Source of the DNA: a virus
Lineage: Duplodnaviria > Heunggongvirae > Uroviricota > Caudoviricetes
Virus record (IMG/VR): IMGVR_UViG_2734482588_000013
Length of the DNA stretch: 34,006 bases
Strand: one strand, 5' to 3'
Positions 2,327 through 28,095 of the stretch are shown in pieces. Position 1 is the first letter of the stretch. Every line of letters begins with the position of its first letter. The translations under genes and the position numbers were made by a program. A model generated the notes under the pieces. It worked only from the letters and a program-made list of their open reading frames with translations. It searched no databases and was not told the origin of the DNA.

Positions 2327-5300
2327 TACCGATATGCTCCACTTAACCGACCACCATCACGGGCCTGCTGTTGCATAAAGTCCGCTGCCGCTTTTTTCCC
2401 AAGGTCATAAACCACCTTCAGGGCAGCCGGACCTATCTGCCCGTTCGTGCCATCGTTATTGATCTCGATGTTGTACTGCGGGGCAAACATCGCCATACCT
2501 GAACCACCAATATCCGCTACAACCCCCAGCTTACCGTCAGCACCACGACGCAGTGGCAGAATGGCTTCAGGTCCAGCTTCCCCCATCACACCCGCGCCTT
2601 TTGCAAAAGCAAAAAACGTCGGACGGTTAACCACCGTGCCACTGTAGCGGCTCAAATCAGCCGACTGATAAACACCGCCATCAGCATTGGCTACAAAATC
2701 AAAAGGCAGCGCGGAAGCAATGCCTTTTACCGCTTTCATTAAAGCTATCTGAGCCATGATTCTGGACATATCTGACAGCACAGAAGAGGTGAAGGATTTG
2801 AAATTGAGTTTGCCTGTAGTACAGAATGTCGCCAGCCAGTCACTCATGCTACTGAACGCAGACGTGAACAACTGTTCCACTGTCCCGGCTGTGTTATCTG
2901 CTTTCTCAGTGACATTCTGGAGTGCACGCAGGACTCCGTTTTTCCAGTCACCCTGAGCAATTTCAAGCTGTTGCCAATAACGGCGATTCTCATTCAGTTG
3001 TCGGTTCAGGCTCTCCGTCAGCGCCTGCTCGGCCTTTCTGTAGTCATCCGTGTTATATGTCCCTTTCTGCTCACTATCCCGCCTCAACTGCTCCAGCTGT
3101 TGCTGATATTTCTGGCGAAGACTCAGTTGTACCTGATATCGCTGCCTCTGCTGATCACCCATACCCACCGTGGCGATATCCAGGTCATGTTGCTGACGCT
3201 GAGCGCGCTCTTCTTCAGCCAGTTGACTGGTCAGCTGAATTGTTTTTTTCTTCAGCTCGTTGAGTGCCGTCTGTTTCTGAAGCTCCTGCTGTTTTACATC
3301 CAGCAGCGTCAGTGCCTGAATCAGTTCATCTTTACGGGCCAGCACACTCTTTTCATCTGCCGTCAGTTTTTTCCCGTCCAGGTCGCTGATGCGCTGCTGC
3401 AGAGCCAGAAGCTGTTTATGCGCTTCTGTCATCCTTTCCGTGGCAATGCCTGCTGACTGTCTGGCAGCAGCAATCTGTCCTTCCACCTGTGCCTGTTGCT
3501 GACTGTACTGCAGCAATAACCGGGTGGCCTCATCATTACGGGGTTCGCGTGTTTTTTTCTTACCGGATGCCAGGGCTTTCTCGTAACGTTCATTTTCACG
3601 TTGTATCGCCGCATCCCTGACAGCCTGATCGGCGTACTGCATGGCATTAATACGCGCAATTTCACGCTGATGTCGTGCTGCTTCCGTTTCATTCATCCGG
3701 TTCAGTGCAGCATTTTCAGCATTACGGCGTTTCTGTTGCTCCTGATAATTCCGCTCTGCCTGCTCTTTTGCATCCTGCAAATCCTTCTGGCGTTTTTTCT
3801 CCTGAAGCTCGTTAAGACGCTGCTGATCGTACTCAACCTGAGAAGATGATGCCGTCCAGGGGAGTCTTTTCGCCCGCGACACTTTCTCCTGTAAAGCGGA
3901 AATCTGTTCATCCAGCGAGTCTTCACGACCAATATTCATGGCCGCATCCCAGAAACGACTCCATAAATCAGACAGATACTTCAGCGTACTGCCCAGCGCA
4001 TTGAGGTTATTATCAATATCCGCAGTACGCCGACCGGTTTCCTCTGCCAGTGCAGACATGGCTATCCGTGCAGCATCACTGGACCGTCCCTGATCCCCAA
4101 GGACACGTATCTGCTCAAGCTGAGTGGCAGTAAGAAAATGCAGCTCATTGTCCAGAGCCTTCGCGGCATTTACAGGATCATCCTTCAGCCGCTTAAACTG
4201 ATTTATGGTATCGCTGACCGACTGGCCAACCGATCGCTCCATCTGTGCGGCAGCTCTCGCCACCATACCGATATCGTTTCCACGAAATGCACCACTCCCC
4301 ACCACCTGAGCCAGCGCACCGGCTGCAGCATGTTGCGTGATACCATTCCCGGAAATAGCACGACTAAGCGTCCACAGCTGCCCGGCAGTGACTCCGGCAT
4401 AATGCCCCGTCAGCGACAACTGGCGGTTAAATTCTTCCCCCTCCTTCTGACCGTCATACCAGGCTTTACCCAGACCATAGACGGACGCGGCAATACCGCC
4501 AATAACCCCGCCAAGCATCATGCCTTTCGGTGACATCAGAGTGTCTATCCATCCGGCACGGTTAGCCAGCGTTATCCCGGATCCCCTCAGCGCCCCTAAA
4601 TTGCCGCGGGCCAGTTCACCTATCAGAACGCCTATCTCCTGGCGGGCCGCTGCACTTTTCAGACCCAGCGAATGCGTGGCTTTTCCTGCCTGCTCCATTT
4701 TGCGGATATACACTTCTGCAGCACTGCTTACCCCCAGCTGGGCAGCCTTAGCACGAAGCAACTCAGAAGAAGAAAGATTCTGGCGGGTTGCCTGCTCTTT
4801 AAGCTGACGGATAAACGCCACTTTCTGTCGGGTAGCCTCTTCCTCAGCCTGCGTAAGAACACGGGTTTTCGCCGTAACCTCAGAAATCAGCGCCAGATAA
4901 TCCTGCTGACCAATCCCGCCACTGTTTCTGGCCTGTCGGATCTGCTGCTGAATACGCTGTAATTCCTGCAGCCCCGCACTGGCCTGTTTCACACTGTCAA
5001 TCTGACGATAAAACGCGGCAGCCGCTTTATCCTGAGCCTCCGCCAGAGCCATGGCCTGCGCCTGTTCCTCGCGCATTTTCTGGCTCAGCGCCTCCATGCG
5101 CTGGCGGGTTTGCTCCACCTCGCGGGCCATGCGTTCATGAGCCTGTGCGCTCTTCTCCACCGTCTGCGCATGGACGGATGCGGCTGTTGCAGCCGAAGAA
5201 GCCGCCTGCATTGTCTGCCGGGCGGCCTGAGTCTGACGCTCCATAAAACGCTGCATACGGGCAGAAGACCGTTCTGCATCGCTGGCTGCACCATTCAGAA

Positions 5301-24075: not shown

Positions 24076-24296
24076 GCTGCACCTCCGAGATGCTTCATGT
24101 TTTTTCCGGAGCGAAAGGCTATAAGCGGCATACTGACGCGGTAATTACGGCCCAGCGGTTCACAAATCACCTTCTGACATTCACGGTCAACCAGGCTAAC
24201 ACGTAGAACATGCCCTGCAGGCGTGGTGTACCACTGACCCGGACGAGGACAACGGAAAGTCTGATTGGTAAAACGTTTGAAAATATTCCGGATCAT
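24072..24296 (-). CDS. hypothetical small protein
   Basis: 74-aa ORF tightly packed between the Rha-like and O-like genes, with ATGA-type coupling on both sides. Confidence 0.4.
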   Translation of the reverse strand: MIRNIFKRFTNQTFRCPRPGQWYTTPAGHVLRVSLVDRECQKVICEPLGRNYRVSMPLIAFRSGKNMKHLGGAA

Positions 24297-25441
24297 TTGC
24301 GCCCCCTTACCTCTGAAGGGTTCAGCGACAAATTTATGAGGCAGGCCAGCGCCGAAGCATCATTAATATAGTCATATAAGCTAACAGCCAGCGGAGATTC
24401 GGCTTTTGCCAACATAGGATAAAGCTGCTGCAGCCAGACCTGATGAATTGATGAAATGTAGGAACAGAGAACGCTGGCGTTATGTGCAACGTCGCTCGGT
24501 ACAGCGGGCTTTGAAAGCTGTTTCTCCATCTGGTTAAAGGCATTGATGTATGCCTCTTTGAACTGGGCAGCACGTTTACCCGTGAAACCCATAGCAAGAA
24601 ACGCAAAGCCGTCGCGGGTTATTTGATAGCAAGGTAGTTTGCGGCCTGATGCGTCGATGTACTCACTGAGCTGGAAATTCAGCTCAGTAAATTCGGCAGA
24701 GCATTCAAGAGACGCAATTTTTTGAATGACGTTTTTGTGTTGTTTGCCGAAATAACTAGCAACAGCCAGAGAAGAAGTAACAACTTTGTCTGCAATAATG
24801 CAAAGTTCAGGTTGAACTAAGGCAGGGATCGTAGCCATGATGGCAGCCTCCGTATGCAATGGATAACTTCCACCACCGGAAACGCCAATTTCGCTGGTGG
24901 TGAACTGAGCAGGGTTGGCGTAACCGGCGCATACGGAAACCGGCGCACCTTTCGGTGCCCCCACCCAGCCCACCATAATTTGGGTATAGCTGAGTTGTAG
25001 CAACAAAAAAGACGCTAACGCGCCAATTGTCGCCGTATGCAATTCCAGGACGCCAATCCCGGCACCCGCTTTATAAGGTGCCTGAACAGTGTAACGTCCC
25101 GGAATGGCAGAATCAATGTGCTGGTGGTCCTTCACACTCAACAAAATCACGCCTGAATTTCCACAAAGGACTAAAGCACTCATGCGGGTAGTCTTTGCGA
25201 AGATAGATAACGCGCTGTGTTTCTGGCTCCCAACGAATAACATGAACATAAAGTCCTCTTCCGTCACGAAACCAGCGGTTAAGTTCCTGCACAACTCGCC
25301 CCCCACAGTCAGGTAAAGTTCTCTGTGGTTACTTACAGCCAGGTGATTTGGTAATCTGCATTCATGCCGTAACAACAGGTGTGCAGCGACACTGACCACC
25401 AGCTGTTGCGACAAACGGTTATTTGCCGTTAAACTGTTCAT
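24293..25441 (-). CDS. Rha-family phage regulatory protein (382-aa ORF; Rha domain begins at internal start 24838)
   Basis: The C-terminal 181 aa (MATIPALVQPE...) carry a Rha-like domain and are preceded by GGAGG 8 nt upstream of the ATG at 24838. The upstream 200 aa are in frame, unrecognised, and begin with an ATGA overlap to the preceding gene. Confidence 0.55.
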   Translation of the reverse strand: MNSLTANNRLSQQLVVSVAAHLLLRHECRLPNHLAVSNHRELYLTVGGELCRNLTAGFVTEEDFMFMLFVGSQKHSALSIFAKTTRMSALVLCGNSGVILLSVKDHQHIDSAIPGRYTVQAPYKAGAGIGVLELHTATIGALASFLLLQLSYTQIMVGWVGAPKGAPVSVCAGYANPAQFTTSEIGVSGGGSYPLHTEAAIMATIPALVQPELCIIADKVVTSSLAVASYFGKQHKNVIQKIASLECSAEFTELNFQLSEYIDASGRKLPCYQITRDGFAFLAMGFTGKRAAQFKEAYINAFNQMEKQLSKPAVPSDVAHNASVLCSYISSIHQVWLQQLYPMLAKAESPLAVSLYDYINDASALACLINLSLNPSEVRGRK

Positions 25442-26339: not shown

Positions 26340-27032
26340 ATGAACATAGGAAATCGAGTCAGACAACTTCGCCAGGCGAAGAACATGAAAATCGCCGATC
26401 TCGCTGAAGCAATAGGAGTGGATGCGGCGAATATCTCGCGCCTCGAAACAGGTAAGCAGAAACAATTCACTGAACAAGCCCTGAGTAATATTGCCAGGAG
26501 CTTAGGTGTTGATATTGCTGATCTCTTTACCTCAGACCTCAAAAGTAATACTGTATGTAAAAACAGTATTAGTGAGGATGTTGCGCAGGTGAAGGATGTA
26601 TTCCGTATTGAAATGCTGGATGTCAGTGCCAGTGCGGGAAATGGCCTTATCCAGGGCGGTGATGTCATTGATGTGATTCATGCCATTGAATACAGAACTG
26701 ATAATGCTGTATCGATGTTTGGTGGACGACCAGCAAATCACATTAAAGTTATCAACGTTCGTGGGGACAGTATGTGTCCAACCATTGAGCCAGGAGATCT
26801 CATCTTCGTTGATATCAGTATCAATCAGTTTGATGGGGATGGTATATATGTATTTGGTTTTGATGATAAAATTTACGTCAAACGACTGCAAATGATACCT
26901 GATAAACTGCTGGTAATTTCTGATAATCAGATTTACCGCGAATGGGGAATTACCAGCGAAAACGAACACCGGTTTATGGTCTTTGGAAAGGTCTTAATCA
27001 GTCAGTCACAAACCCTTAAGCGACACAATTAA
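26340..27032 (+). CDS. cI: CI-type prophage repressor (HTH + S24 LexA-like autopeptidase)
   Basis: N-terminal XRE HTH (RVRQLRQAKNMKIADLAEAIGVDAANISRLETG), Ala-Gly cleavage site (SASAGNG), and catalytic Ser/Lys motifs (GDSM...VKRL). Confidence 0.9.
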   Translation: MNIGNRVRQLRQAKNMKIADLAEAIGVDAANISRLETGKQKQFTEQALSNIARSLGVDIADLFTSDLKSNTVCKNSISEDVAQVKDVFRIEMLDVSASAGNGLIQGGDVIDVIHAIEYRTDNAVSMFGGRPANHIKVINVRGDSMCPTIEPGDLIFVDISINQFDGDGIYVFGFDDKIYVKRLQMIPDKLLVISDNQIYREWGITSENEHRFMVFGKVLISQSQTLKRHN

Positions 27033-27053
27033 CCCCCTACCTCAACATCAATT

Positions 27054-27078
27054 AGCCACCAGAAGGTGGCTTTTCATT
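27054..27078 (+). terminator. intrinsic terminator after cI
   Basis: AGCCACC-agaa-GGTGGCT stem-loop followed by TTTTCATT, 22 nt after the cI stop. Confidence 0.6.
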
Positions 27079-27084
27079 ACTCAC

Positions 27085-27140
27085 GCTATTGCATGTCTCG
27101 CAATAAAATACTTGCACGTTACGCAATTTCATTTTATCTT
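27085..27140 (+). promoter_or_regulatory. OL operators / candidate pL promoter
   Basis: Two TTGC-N7-GCAA sites (TTGCATGTCTCGCAA, TTGCACGTTACGCAA) matching the OR half-sites; possible -35 TTGCAC and -10 TATCTT with 17-nt spacing. Confidence 0.45.
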
Positions 27141-27550
27141 TCTTTCCAGACCAACAAACAAGGTCCTGACAAAATTTGGTTGTAACACGGCGTATGGCAC
27201 ATGCGTCGTTAGCGGTCTGGGGACGTTAAAGGGGACAATCCACTCCTTGCTCGGGCAAACAAACCAGGTAGCCGGAATGTGCAAGTCAATGAGGATGCTG
27301 ATAAGACGCCTAACCAGCGTGGCGATTCGGTTTGACGCCTGGGAAGAGACCAGGGTGCAACGATGATGGCATTTATGGAACCGCGACAAAGTGTGGTGCC
27401 GTAACTGGCTAAGTGCTCTCAGCGTTGTGGTAATCCGCGAAATGGCGCGGCGGTAAGTATGGCGGGGTTACTCTTTCCCCGTTGAGGACACCGGATTGTC
27501 AGGTTGACCATACGCCTGAGTGACAACCCCACCACAACAGCCACTGCTTT

Positions 27551-27690
27551 GGCGGTACCAGTTTGTACACTTGCTTCCGGCTGGTACCGCTCTTTTTACA
27601 AAACAGAGAAGAGCATCACCGGACGACGGGCTCATAACCCAATCCATCCGGGCGGCTGCACCGCAGGTGTTCTTCTCTGTTTTGTGGAGA
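27551..27690 (+). promoter_or_regulatory. structured leader RNA element (nut/put-like antitermination site candidate)
   Basis: 10-bp perfect hairpin GCGGTACCAG...CTGGTACCGC followed by CTCTTTTTACAA (boxA-like), then a 15-bp perfect inverted repeat ACAAAACAGAGAAGA (27598-27612) / TCTTCTCTGTTTTGT (27671-27685) enclosing a GC-rich loop. Confidence 0.35.
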
Positions 27691-27732
27691 AACCAACCGA
27701 CCTTGCAGGGTCGATATGATGAGGAGCAGCAA

Positions 27733-28095
27733 ATGGCTAGCGAACGCAGTACTGATGTGCAGGCATTTATCGGGGAGCTGGACGGCGGCGTATTTGAAAC
27801 CAAAATCGGCGCAGTTCTCAGTGAAGTCGCTTCCGGTGTGATGAACACGAAAACCAAAGGTAAGGTCTCGCTCAACCTGGAAATCGAACCGTTTGATGAG
27901 AACCGTGTGAAAATCAAACACAAACTCTCATATGTTCGCCCGACTAACCGCGGGAAAATTTCCGAAGAAGACACCACCGAAACGCCGATGTATGTCAATC
28001 GCGGTGGTCGCCTGACTATTCTGCAGGAAGACCAGGGACAATTACTGACTCTTGCCGGTGAGCCTGACGGAAAACTCCGCGCAGCAGGTCATTAA
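27733..28095 (+). CDS. YfdP-like hypothetical protein
   Basis: 120-aa ORF starting at the internal Met MASERSTDV with GAGGAG 6-7 nt upstream. The longer 191-aa ORF upstream is taken to be leader sequence. Confidence 0.55.
   Translation: MASERSTDVQAFIGELDGGVFETKIGAVLSEVASGVMNTKTKGKVSLNLEIEPFDENRVKIKHKLSYVRPTNRGKISEEDTTETPMYVNRGGRLTILQEDQGQLLTLAGEPDGKLRAAGH

Follow-up and report, generated by a model that had tools for sequence, protein, structure and literature searches.

An array of conserved RNA modules, with an exchangeable slot, between pL and yfdP in a lambdoid prophage of Escherichia coli that lacks an N gene

Results

Organisation of the early-left region

The window analysed here is a stretch of 34,006 nucleotides (IMG/VR record IMGVR_UViG_2734482588_000013) from an E. 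coli lambdoid prophage of the mEp460/cdtI/PhiR40_1 type, and our subject is the interval 27140-27550, which lies between the leftward operators and promoter (OL and pL) and yfdP, the first protein gene of the early-left operon. Two conserved RNA folds, here called modules A and B, occupy much of this interval and are followed by an intrinsic terminator of the kind found at the dicF locus (Table 1). The segment 27040-27740 is 100% identical by BLAST to the chromosome of APEC 102026, and comparison with other phages by the same means shows the interval to be a mosaic. The hairpin that terminates the repressor gene and bounds the RNA unit upstream is identical in mEp460, WGPS2 and PhiR40_1. Judging from the promoter hexamers, transcription from pL would start near 27147; the same layout (TTGC.., a 17-nt spacer and TATCTT) stands directly 5′ of module A in the IMG/VR loci L260 and L284. 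From pL to the start of yfdP at 27733 there are about 590 nt without a gene, and with no N-like gene, after which yfdP, yfdQ, yfdR and yfdS follow in that order. The succession of repressor, operators, pL, gap and yfdP therefore makes the interval the head of the early-left transcript in a phage without an N gene, and the position is as described in a first-pass annotation of this DNA, which had placed the interval at the map position of lambda N, between OL/pL and a structured leader.

Table 1. Positions of the genes, transcription signals and RNA elements of the early-left region.
Feature	Position	Strand	Remarks
Rha-type antirepressor gene	24293-25441	-	
YmfL-like gene, then cro-like gene	between the antirepressor and repressor genes	-	
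S24 repressor (cI-like) gene	26340-27032	+	
Intrinsic terminator hairpin of the repressor gene	27054-27071	+	terminator scan; upstream boundary of the RNA unit
OL operators, palindromes ATTGCAtgtctCGCAAT and CTTGCAcgttaCGCAAT	27088-27140	+	overlap pL; read from the sequence
pL, -35 TTGCAC and -10 TATCTT	27112-27117 and 27135-27140	+	17-nt spacer
Module A, structured RNA of about 190 nt	27188-27375	+	33-sequence alignment A4, covariation
A, helix H1	27188-27208	+	loop UGGCACA
A, helix H2	27216-27219 with 27265-27268	+	encloses a variable hairpin with a CU-rich loop
A, invariant strand GGUAGCCGGAAUGUGCAAG	27267-27285	+	
A, helix H4	27306-27309 with 27317-27320	+	loop CUAACCA
A, helix H5	27338-27342 with 27350-27354	+	loop GAAGAGA
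Pyrimidine-rich boxA-like motif GUGCUCUCAGC	27413-27423	+	immediately before the cassette slot
Module B, 115-nt cloverleaf (four-way junction)	27424-27538	+	alignments A1 and A3
B, closing stem P0, GUUGUGGU/ACCACAAC	27424-27431 with 27531-27538	+	
B, short hairpin P1	27435-27439 with 27446-27450	+	
B, P2a	27452-27454 with 27490-27492	+	part of a two-tier arm
B, P2	27463-27467 with 27477-27481	+	CU-rich loop
B, P3, 9 bp	27493-27501 with 27521-27529	+	19-nt invariant loop
Intrinsic terminator at the DicF position, 11-bp stem GGCGGUACCAG/CUGGUACCGC(U)C	27551-27597	+	19-nt loop, U5 tract
Long hairpin, perfect outer stem of 16-17 bp, ACAAAACAGAGAAGAG.../...UUCUUCUCUGUUUUGU	27598-27700	+	between the terminator and the yfdP ribosome-binding site
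yfdP	27733-28095	+	first protein gene of the early-left operon; PHROG phrog_204, E=1.2e-49; RefSeq 'protein YfdP'

The interval is non-coding

Only two open reading frames (ORFs) of at least 60 amino acids lie in the interval: one of 84 residues on the plus strand (27112-27366), with a TTG start on the -35 hexamer of pL, and an antisense one of 86 residues (27129-27389, minus strand). Three others, 27504-27719 and 27520-28095 on the plus strand and 27468-27998 on the minus strand, touch only the last 50-80 nt, 27520-28095 being an in-frame upstream extension of yfdP. No Shine-Dalgarno-like sequence precedes any plus-strand ATG or GTG ORF of at least 20 residues in the interval, in agreement with the earlier description of ORFs that start in the operators or run antisense and have no ribosome-binding site. 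The first 200 nt were compared among 33 distinct homologues: substitutions are spread evenly over the three codon positions (644/661/657), 154 of the 171 insertions and deletions are not multiples of three, and no frame is open in every sequence. The three local ORFs match no PHROG family, the yfdP control does, and the RefSeq annotation pipeline (PGAP) places nothing in the interval. Its GC content is 53.3%; the whole window has 50.8%, cI 42% and yfdP-yfdQ 46%. The first-pass annotation's view that there is no convincing coding frame is thus upheld by the even codon positions, the frame-breaking indels and the lack of a PHROG match, and the conserved ORF covering the region, which it held would count against that view, does not appear among these homologues of the first 200 nt.

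Module A is held by compensatory changes

Module A starts some 40 nt after pL. A search anchored on its invariant 19-mer gave 103 unique sequences, forming 45 clusters below 93% identity. The alignment of 33 sequences shows compensatory changes that preserve four helices: pair 18:30 of H1 is AU in 18 sequences and GC in 15 and is never broken, pair 44:102 of H2 is CG in 24 and UA in nine, and H4 and H5 have three covarying pairs each, among these 150:162, 152:160, 184:196 and 185:195. Pairing is seen in 89.9% of cells, against 25-41% when the partners are slid, and the covariation score was reached in none of 500 shuffles. The loops and junctions are invariant in the same alignment, with divergent flanks.

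The loop of H1, UGGCACA, is complementary to the invariant strand AAUGUGCAAG, and a pseudoknot between GCACA (27197-27201) and UGUGC (27278-27282) is possible from the sequence; as neither side varies, this pairing lies beyond the covariation test. RNAalifold put a long-range pairing of GCACAU with AUGUGC in the place of H1. The local helix was preferred because pair 18:30 covaries perfectly in it, and the long-range pairing was rejected as a main helix and kept as the pseudoknot candidate. A closing stem GUUGUA/UGCAAC was also rejected, as only 54% of cells pair.

A covariance model (CM) of the module, R3, scores 162 bits at its single copy in the window and has no match in Qin-type or put-bearing loci. 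Lambdoid phages carry module A immediately behind the repressor gene and pL (mEp390, WGPS2 and many IMG/VR contigs); it also occurs in the epsilon15-like podophages phiV10, SPN1S and TL-2011b, and in P1/P7/D6-like phages, where it lies between tRNA-Ile and ban. At several loci it begins within about 10 nt of the predicted transcription start.

Module B matches the element upstream of DicF

Module B sequences were collected by an exact 18-mer anchor. Over 21 distinct sequences the helices pair in 93.8% of cells, nine pairs are changed on both sides, and none of 500 shuffles did as well. The closing stem P0 resembles a tRNA acceptor stem, with an eighth pair that is U-A here and C-G in most relatives. 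The outer hairpin P2 varies freely in sequence, its pairing and CU-rich loop being kept, and the UUGUCA/UGACAA of P3 becomes UUGCCA/UGGCAA in P1 and P7. GUAUGG (27457-27462) and CCAUAC (27508-27513) form a candidate loop-to-junction pseudoknot, in which pair 42:101 is UA in 18 sequences, CG in two and UG in one; in phage P1 the two strands read GCAUGG and CCAUGC.

The CM for this module, R2, gives 142.9 bits and a single copy in the window, and finds no match in cassette C of mEp460 and WGPS2 (described below), in other cassettes, in tRNA loci, in HK022 or in HK639. B is about 93% identical to an unannotated 107 nt of the K-12 prophage Qin (locus L003, 3001-3107) that end 26 nt upstream of DicF, and B-like sequence is present in 4738 of 5426 complete E. 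coli genomes (87%; BLAST). In P1 and P7 it lies about 45 nt after the C1-controlled promoter Pban, at a site that the P1/P7 GenBank record already marks as a 'dicF-like region'. Scanning 26900-27900 with Rfam 15, at the gathering threshold and at E<=10, gave nothing in the interval, riboswitches included; the only matches, a plant microRNA and a hairpin ribozyme, are at chance level (E=4-8) and outside it. The DicF model (RF00039) likewise has no match in 26900-27900 at E<=10; as a control it scores 76.7 bits on the K-12 locus. As far as we have found, the B element has not previously been described.

In 84 of the 89 unique contexts of module B an intrinsic terminator follows 10-40 nt past the module. 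In Qin-type loci this is DicF itself and in P1/P7 a different hairpin; elsewhere it is a DicF-like hairpin that begins (U)UUGGCGGUA and has a varied, often CU-rich loop. The terminator of the window aligns with that of DicF (alignment A1), and the two loci have in common the B element, a Rho-independent hairpin beginning UUUGGCGGUA and early-left genes, all under a repressor-controlled promoter. They differ in that the window hairpin has another loop and is without the 5′ arm of DicF, so that the DicF targets ftsZ, xylR and pykA are not to be assumed here, and in that B follows ydfABC in Qin and not module A. DicF itself is cut out of the operon transcript, with a 5′ end made by processing and a 3′ end made by termination or by RNase III (PMC5069750).

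Directly after the U-tract of the terminator comes the long hairpin, which is the 'structured leader' of the first-pass annotation and is common, at 92-99%, to SfV, SfII and CPS-53-type yfdP loci. By analogy with the 72-nt form of DicF, which owes its 3′ end to RNase III (PMC5069750), this hairpin may be an RNase III site that supplies an alternative 3′ end on read-through transcripts.

CU-rich loops (UCCUU, CUCC, UCCCUU) recur at the locus, in the variable hairpin of module A (27220-27264), in P2 of module B (27468-27476) and in many of the DicF-like terminator loops of related loci. They resemble anti-Shine-Dalgarno or small RNA (sRNA) seed sequences.

An exchangeable slot downstream of module A

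Among 128 module-A loci, tRNA-Arg(UCU) is found in 27 and module B in 23, at the same offset after A. In phiV10 a promoter, module A, tRNA-Arg and a DicF-like terminator form a unit that holds no protein gene and is inserted between late genes; its linker agrees with that of the window as far as GUUGUGG. On both sides of the slot, mEp460 and the Stx2a phage WGPS2 are near-identical to the window, and between GUUGUGGU and ACCACAAC they carry a cassette of about 137 nt, cassette C, which has no similarity to B. Unrelated folded inserts are bracketed by GUUGUGG...CCACAAC in L002 (mEp460, 2886-3030), L476 (WGPS2), L260, L281, L282 and L292. The first hairpin of cassette C shows a compensatory change (GCGCA/UGCGC, compared with GCACA/UGUGC in L260), and the cassette also holds a 24-codon ORF, MRRLMRERHCSYCGKELFGGAIKRP, without a good ribosome-binding site.

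Just before the slot lies the motif GUGCUCUCAGC, which resembles boxA, whose sequence we take to be UGCUCUUUA / CGCUCUUA. The pattern GTGC[T/G]C....GTTGTG precedes the slot in 18 sequence variants and 209 instances, and in the 18 variants GUGC(U/G)CU..CG is always upstream of the closing stem.

The modules resemble phage tRNA cassettes in lying in RNA-only stretches beside tRNA genes (trnA/trnT/trnI of P1, tRNA-Arg of the epsilon15-like phages), and B, which takes the tRNA's slot, shares with tRNA a four-way junction, a closing stem of 7-8 bp and loop-loop pairing. Its arm lengths, on the other hand, are unlike those of tRNA and there is no T-loop motif. In the linker after module A of WGPS2 (L476, ~3330-3440) and SPN1S (L009, ~2600-2700) there are pieces like the 3′ half of a tRNA, CTGGTTCAATTCCAG and CCGTTCGATTCGG followed by ..CACCGGCA, a hint from sequence that the array may derive from, or recombine with, tRNA gene clusters. 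RNase P processes several phage RNAs, namely the C4 RNA of P1/P7, the M3 RNA of phi80 and the species 1 RNA of T4. The GenBank record of HK639 (L355, 37910-37969) carries, besides a putL-like RNA, an 'M3-like RNA' after a cII-like gene, a further small phage RNA of the type that in phi80 is known to be an RNase P substrate.

sRNA-17 is an allele of the slot

An sRNA of 193 nt, sRNA-17, has been defined by 5′/3′ rapid amplification of cDNA ends and Northern blotting in the mEp460-like prophage of E. coli K1 strain RS218 (PMC7719688). It was mapped here through mEp460 and the primers in Table S2 of that paper. The full-length primers, CGTTGTGGTGAATGCGCAGG... and AAAAGAGCGGTACCAGCCGGAAGCAAGTGTAC, delimit 2885/6-3078 of L002 (mEp460), a stretch that opens with the first base of the closing stem and ends in the terminator U-tract; they correspond to 27423-27431 and 27566-27597 of the window, AAAAGAGCGGTACCAGCCGGAAGCAAGTGTAC being the exact reverse complement of the window terminator. 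Since the primers fall on the closing stem and the U-tract, sRNA-17 consists of cassette C and the terminator of the window, and a 193-nt RNA with these exact ends therefore exists for the sister cassette. The quantitative reverse-transcription PCR amplicon of that study extends from the start of module A to the end of the cassette, which puts A and the cassette on one transcript. The fragment used by its authors as 'promoter' in electrophoretic mobility shift assays is module A, and the genomes that they class as carrying 'degenerative sRNA-17' are of the B type.

The two loci belong to the same prophage type, with the repressor, pL and module A upstream and yfdP downstream, and sRNA-17 begins at (C)GUUGUGG, which forms the 5′ strand of the closing stem, while its terminator, GGCGGUACCAG...CUGGUACCGCUCUUUU, is identical to that of the window. 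They differ in the body, which in sRNA-17 is cassette C, and R2 has no match on mEp460 or WGPS2. Conservation of structure and a link to dicF are not described in the sRNA-17 paper (PMC7719688). The Pas sRNAs (bioRxiv 2026) were considered and set aside as not relevant, as they lie at other loci, near Q and the lysis genes.

RNA elements on the pR side

On the side of pR, Rfam models match a C4 antisense RNA (24893-24980, minus strand, 80.7 bits) and isrK (25005-25081, minus strand, 61.2 bits) in tandem, inside the 5′ part of the antirepressor ORF or immediately upstream of it. The pair is also present in mEp460 and PhiR40_1 and looks like an antirepressor control module of the P1/P7 immI or Gifsy-1 IsrK type in a lambdoid prophage.

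Discussion

A leader made of RNA modules

The interval is non-coding and modular in layout, with conserved, covarying modules and a terminator. We lean towards the view that pL transcribes it as the untranslated leader with which the early-left operon of this N-less lambdoid prophage opens, and that it is an array of RNA modules rather than spacer, in the order pL, about 40 nt, module A, the boxA-like motif, module B, the DicF-type terminator, the long hairpin and yfdP. By analogy with sRNA-17 and the DicF precursor, B and the terminator would be released as a discrete sRNA of about 174 nt (27423/4-27597), with a 3′ end made by intrinsic termination and a 5′ end, at the first base of the closing stem, made by processing of the pL transcript. 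Our favoured guess for the processing is a cleavage of the RNase P type, which is suggested by an acceptor-like stem at whose base the 5′ end would lie and by a slot that is also used by tRNAs. The terminator would be the first barrier in the early-left operon and limit transcription into yfdPQRS, and the early mRNA would come from polymerases that read through it. For module A we suppose a conserved ribo-element of the leader, probably acting in cis on the processing, stability or elongation of its own transcript. We infer that the B allele of the window behaves as cassette C does and that the 5′ end of its RNA is processed rather than primary; any role of module A, and any targets in trans, are of the same conjectural kind.

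The first-pass annotation had proposed a long 5′ untranslated region or a non-coding RNA, and both are borne out by the lack of coding, the conserved modules and the transcript of the sister allele. It missed the modularity and mosaicism of the region, its kinship with the dicF locus and the terminator, for it closed the interval at 27550, one base before this strong terminator of the same RNA unit. Of the many local inverted repeats that it saw, the structure stands, through covariation, and the excess of repeats does not.

Several observations weigh against the array as we read it. Single-sequence folding is unremarkable, with minimum free energy z-scores of -0.61 and -1.15, and because these energies are not above chance the case for structure rests on covariation between sequences; for module B that covariation is modest, as the exact 18-mer anchor limits the diversity of the sequences collected. 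ARAGORN finds no tRNA or transfer-messenger RNA gene in the window and Rfam gives no match to either there, the same tools recovering the true tRNAs of phiV10, SPN1S, P1 and P7, and a canonical NCCA is missing after the closing stem. In lysogens sRNA-17 accounted for 4 of 11 million reads, its authors ascribe the 5′ end to an ArcA-controlled promoter and not to processing, and yfdP rose 95-fold when sRNA-17 was deleted (PMC7719688), a rise that may be an artefact of the inserted chloramphenicol-resistance (Cm) cassette. As to a promoter at this point, no good sigma-70 match was seen upstream of 27424 by inspection, no dedicated test having been made.

A wider reading is possible, if doubtful, in which A, B, C and the other cassettes make up a modular RNA cassette system that has gone unrecognised, with B a new tRNA-mimic sRNA, A a new class of antiterminator, or both. 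Such a system would consist of the leader ribo-element A, the boxA-like motif, a slot bracketed by an acceptor-type stem and a DicF-type terminator sRNA, and the slot would accept a tRNA or, in its stead, one of several folded RNAs of tRNA size. B might then be freed by RNase P and function in trans, for example as a decoy for defences that target tRNA or as a regulator of translation. Alternatively or additionally, A might be an antiterminator RNA, directed at polymerase or Nus, that stands in for N or put.

Antitermination, attenuation and other explanations

The most serious rival to the sRNA-releasing array is antitermination in cis, which we consider unlikely. Here A, B or both would modify RNA polymerase from the nascent pL transcript so that it reads through the terminator at 27551-27597 and later ones, with or without Nus factors acting through the boxA-like motif, and would substitute for N/nut or put. 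The position is that of putL, promoter-proximal and ahead of the first terminator in a phage without N, and in several loci module A all but adjoins the predicted start. Both A and put adjoin pL, and they are never together in 100 + 100 loci. The unpaired segments are invariant, as expected of a surface that binds protein or polymerase, a boxA-like motif stands 5′ of the slot, and H1 of module A has ACGGCG...CAUGCGUCG in common with stem I of put. The terminators that follow B in 84 of its 89 contexts also have genes beyond them, dicB in Qin and tRNAs, tciABC and ban in P1.

The likeness to put of HK022 and HK639 thus extends to a folded cis RNA with invariant unpaired bases, placed directly after pL in lambdoid phages without N, and the layout of the window, with the -10 of pL at 27135-27140, module A from 27188 and the terminator at 27551-27597, is that of the annotated putL of HK639. 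The modules are however of 190 and 115 nt, compared with about 70 nt for put, and have a different helix plan. A put CM (R1) was built from 21 put sequences, including putL and putR of HK022 and HK639-like putL, with the two-stem consensus GUCGAACGGCGCGAC..AAACCAUGCGUCGG + GGCGGG..CGGCAAU. With filters off and E<=10 it matches nothing in 27140-27600, and 100 module-A loci are likewise without a match. When HK022 putL and putR and the two modules were compared with the window by BLAST, the matches were limited to chance 8-11-mers, with no second copy of either module; the CMs of A and B likewise give no copy on the pR side. Rfam 15 has no put family, and its scan of HK022 gave no matches. The best R1 matches in the window are weak and lie elsewhere, on the minus strand at 2152-2237 (E=0.075) and 25341-25439 (E=0.94); the former, at 12 bits, contains GUCG.GCGGCGGGACUGAAUAACCAG.UGUCG and is probably due to chance. 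Two put-bearing IMG/VR contigs (L412, 1200-1285; L429, 2774-2859) have stem I of put followed by a perfect boxA, CGCTCTTTAACAA, and no stem II, which suggests, from the sequence, hybrids of RNA-only and Nus-dependent antitermination.

With lambda N/nutL the interval shares a map position, from pL to the recombination and early-left genes, and a boxA-like sequence; it differs in having no N-like ORF or coding signal and no identified boxB-type hairpin. Also against antitermination is the slot itself, where B is swapped for a tRNA or for unrelated cassettes that the B models do not match, and such free exchange fits stand-alone RNA products better than a conserved modifier of polymerase. The phiV10 cassette is moreover a self-contained RNA unit between late genes, and for the sister allele a terminated RNA of 193 nt accumulates.

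It is improbable that the array is instead a conditional attenuator, in which B (or A) would be a riboswitch-like or protein-bound sensor whose state governs how efficiently the terminator beside it works. Such a device would agree with a fold that has a pseudoknot and invariant junctions and is closely followed by a terminator, at the head of repressor-controlled operons. Against it, there is no conserved alternative antiterminator pairing, the genes downstream are unrelated between phages, no riboswitch family is matched in Rfam and the slot can hold a tRNA. One candidate pairing, of GGCGGUA in B with the 3′ arm of the terminator, was rejected, since it is absent in P1/P7 and so not conserved.

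Slightly less probable again is that the modules are the decaying remnant of a phage tRNA array or a recombination scar, conserved merely through the recent spread of a mosaic segment. The region is indeed highly mosaic, tRNA genes share the slot or adjoin the modules, and the linkers of WGPS2 and SPN1S hold the tRNA-like fragments. Yet in lambdoid, P1-like and epsilon15-like phages compensatory changes keep the helices of A over 33 distinct sequences and those of B over 21, the loops and junctions stay invariant as the flanks diverge, and matches occur in 87% of E. coli genomes. That the interval encodes one or more small proteins, such as the 84-residue or the 86-residue ORF or the 'hypothetical proteins' of mEp460 and PhiR40_1, in line with automated coding-sequence calls in the homologous stretch (mEp460 gp36 and gp37, PhiR40_1 and others), is largely refuted by the absence of codon-position bias, of a universally open frame, of a ribosome-binding site, of a PHROG family and of any RefSeq PGAP annotation, and by the 90% of indels that break the frame.

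Significance

Prophage sRNAs such as DicF affect the cell division and metabolism of the host, and how they are packaged and made is poorly known. The untranslated region of the DicF operon, sRNA-17 and the 'dicF-like region' of P1 were already known; we have found no earlier account of the two folds or their covariation, of the exchangeable slot, or of the match between B and the stretch preceding DicF, and neither fold is in Rfam 15. The 'long untranslated region' of dicF-type loci is not filler. It contains at least two conserved, covarying folds that are in no database, one of them present in most E. coli genomes including K-12, and these occupy an exchangeable slot in which a tRNA fits equally well. 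sRNA-17, as published, represents one allele of that slot, and its supposed promoter is itself a structured RNA. If the modules control elongation, lambdoid phages would have in them a third way, after N/nut and put, of achieving early antitermination; if they act in trans, they would represent new families of phage RNA effectors.

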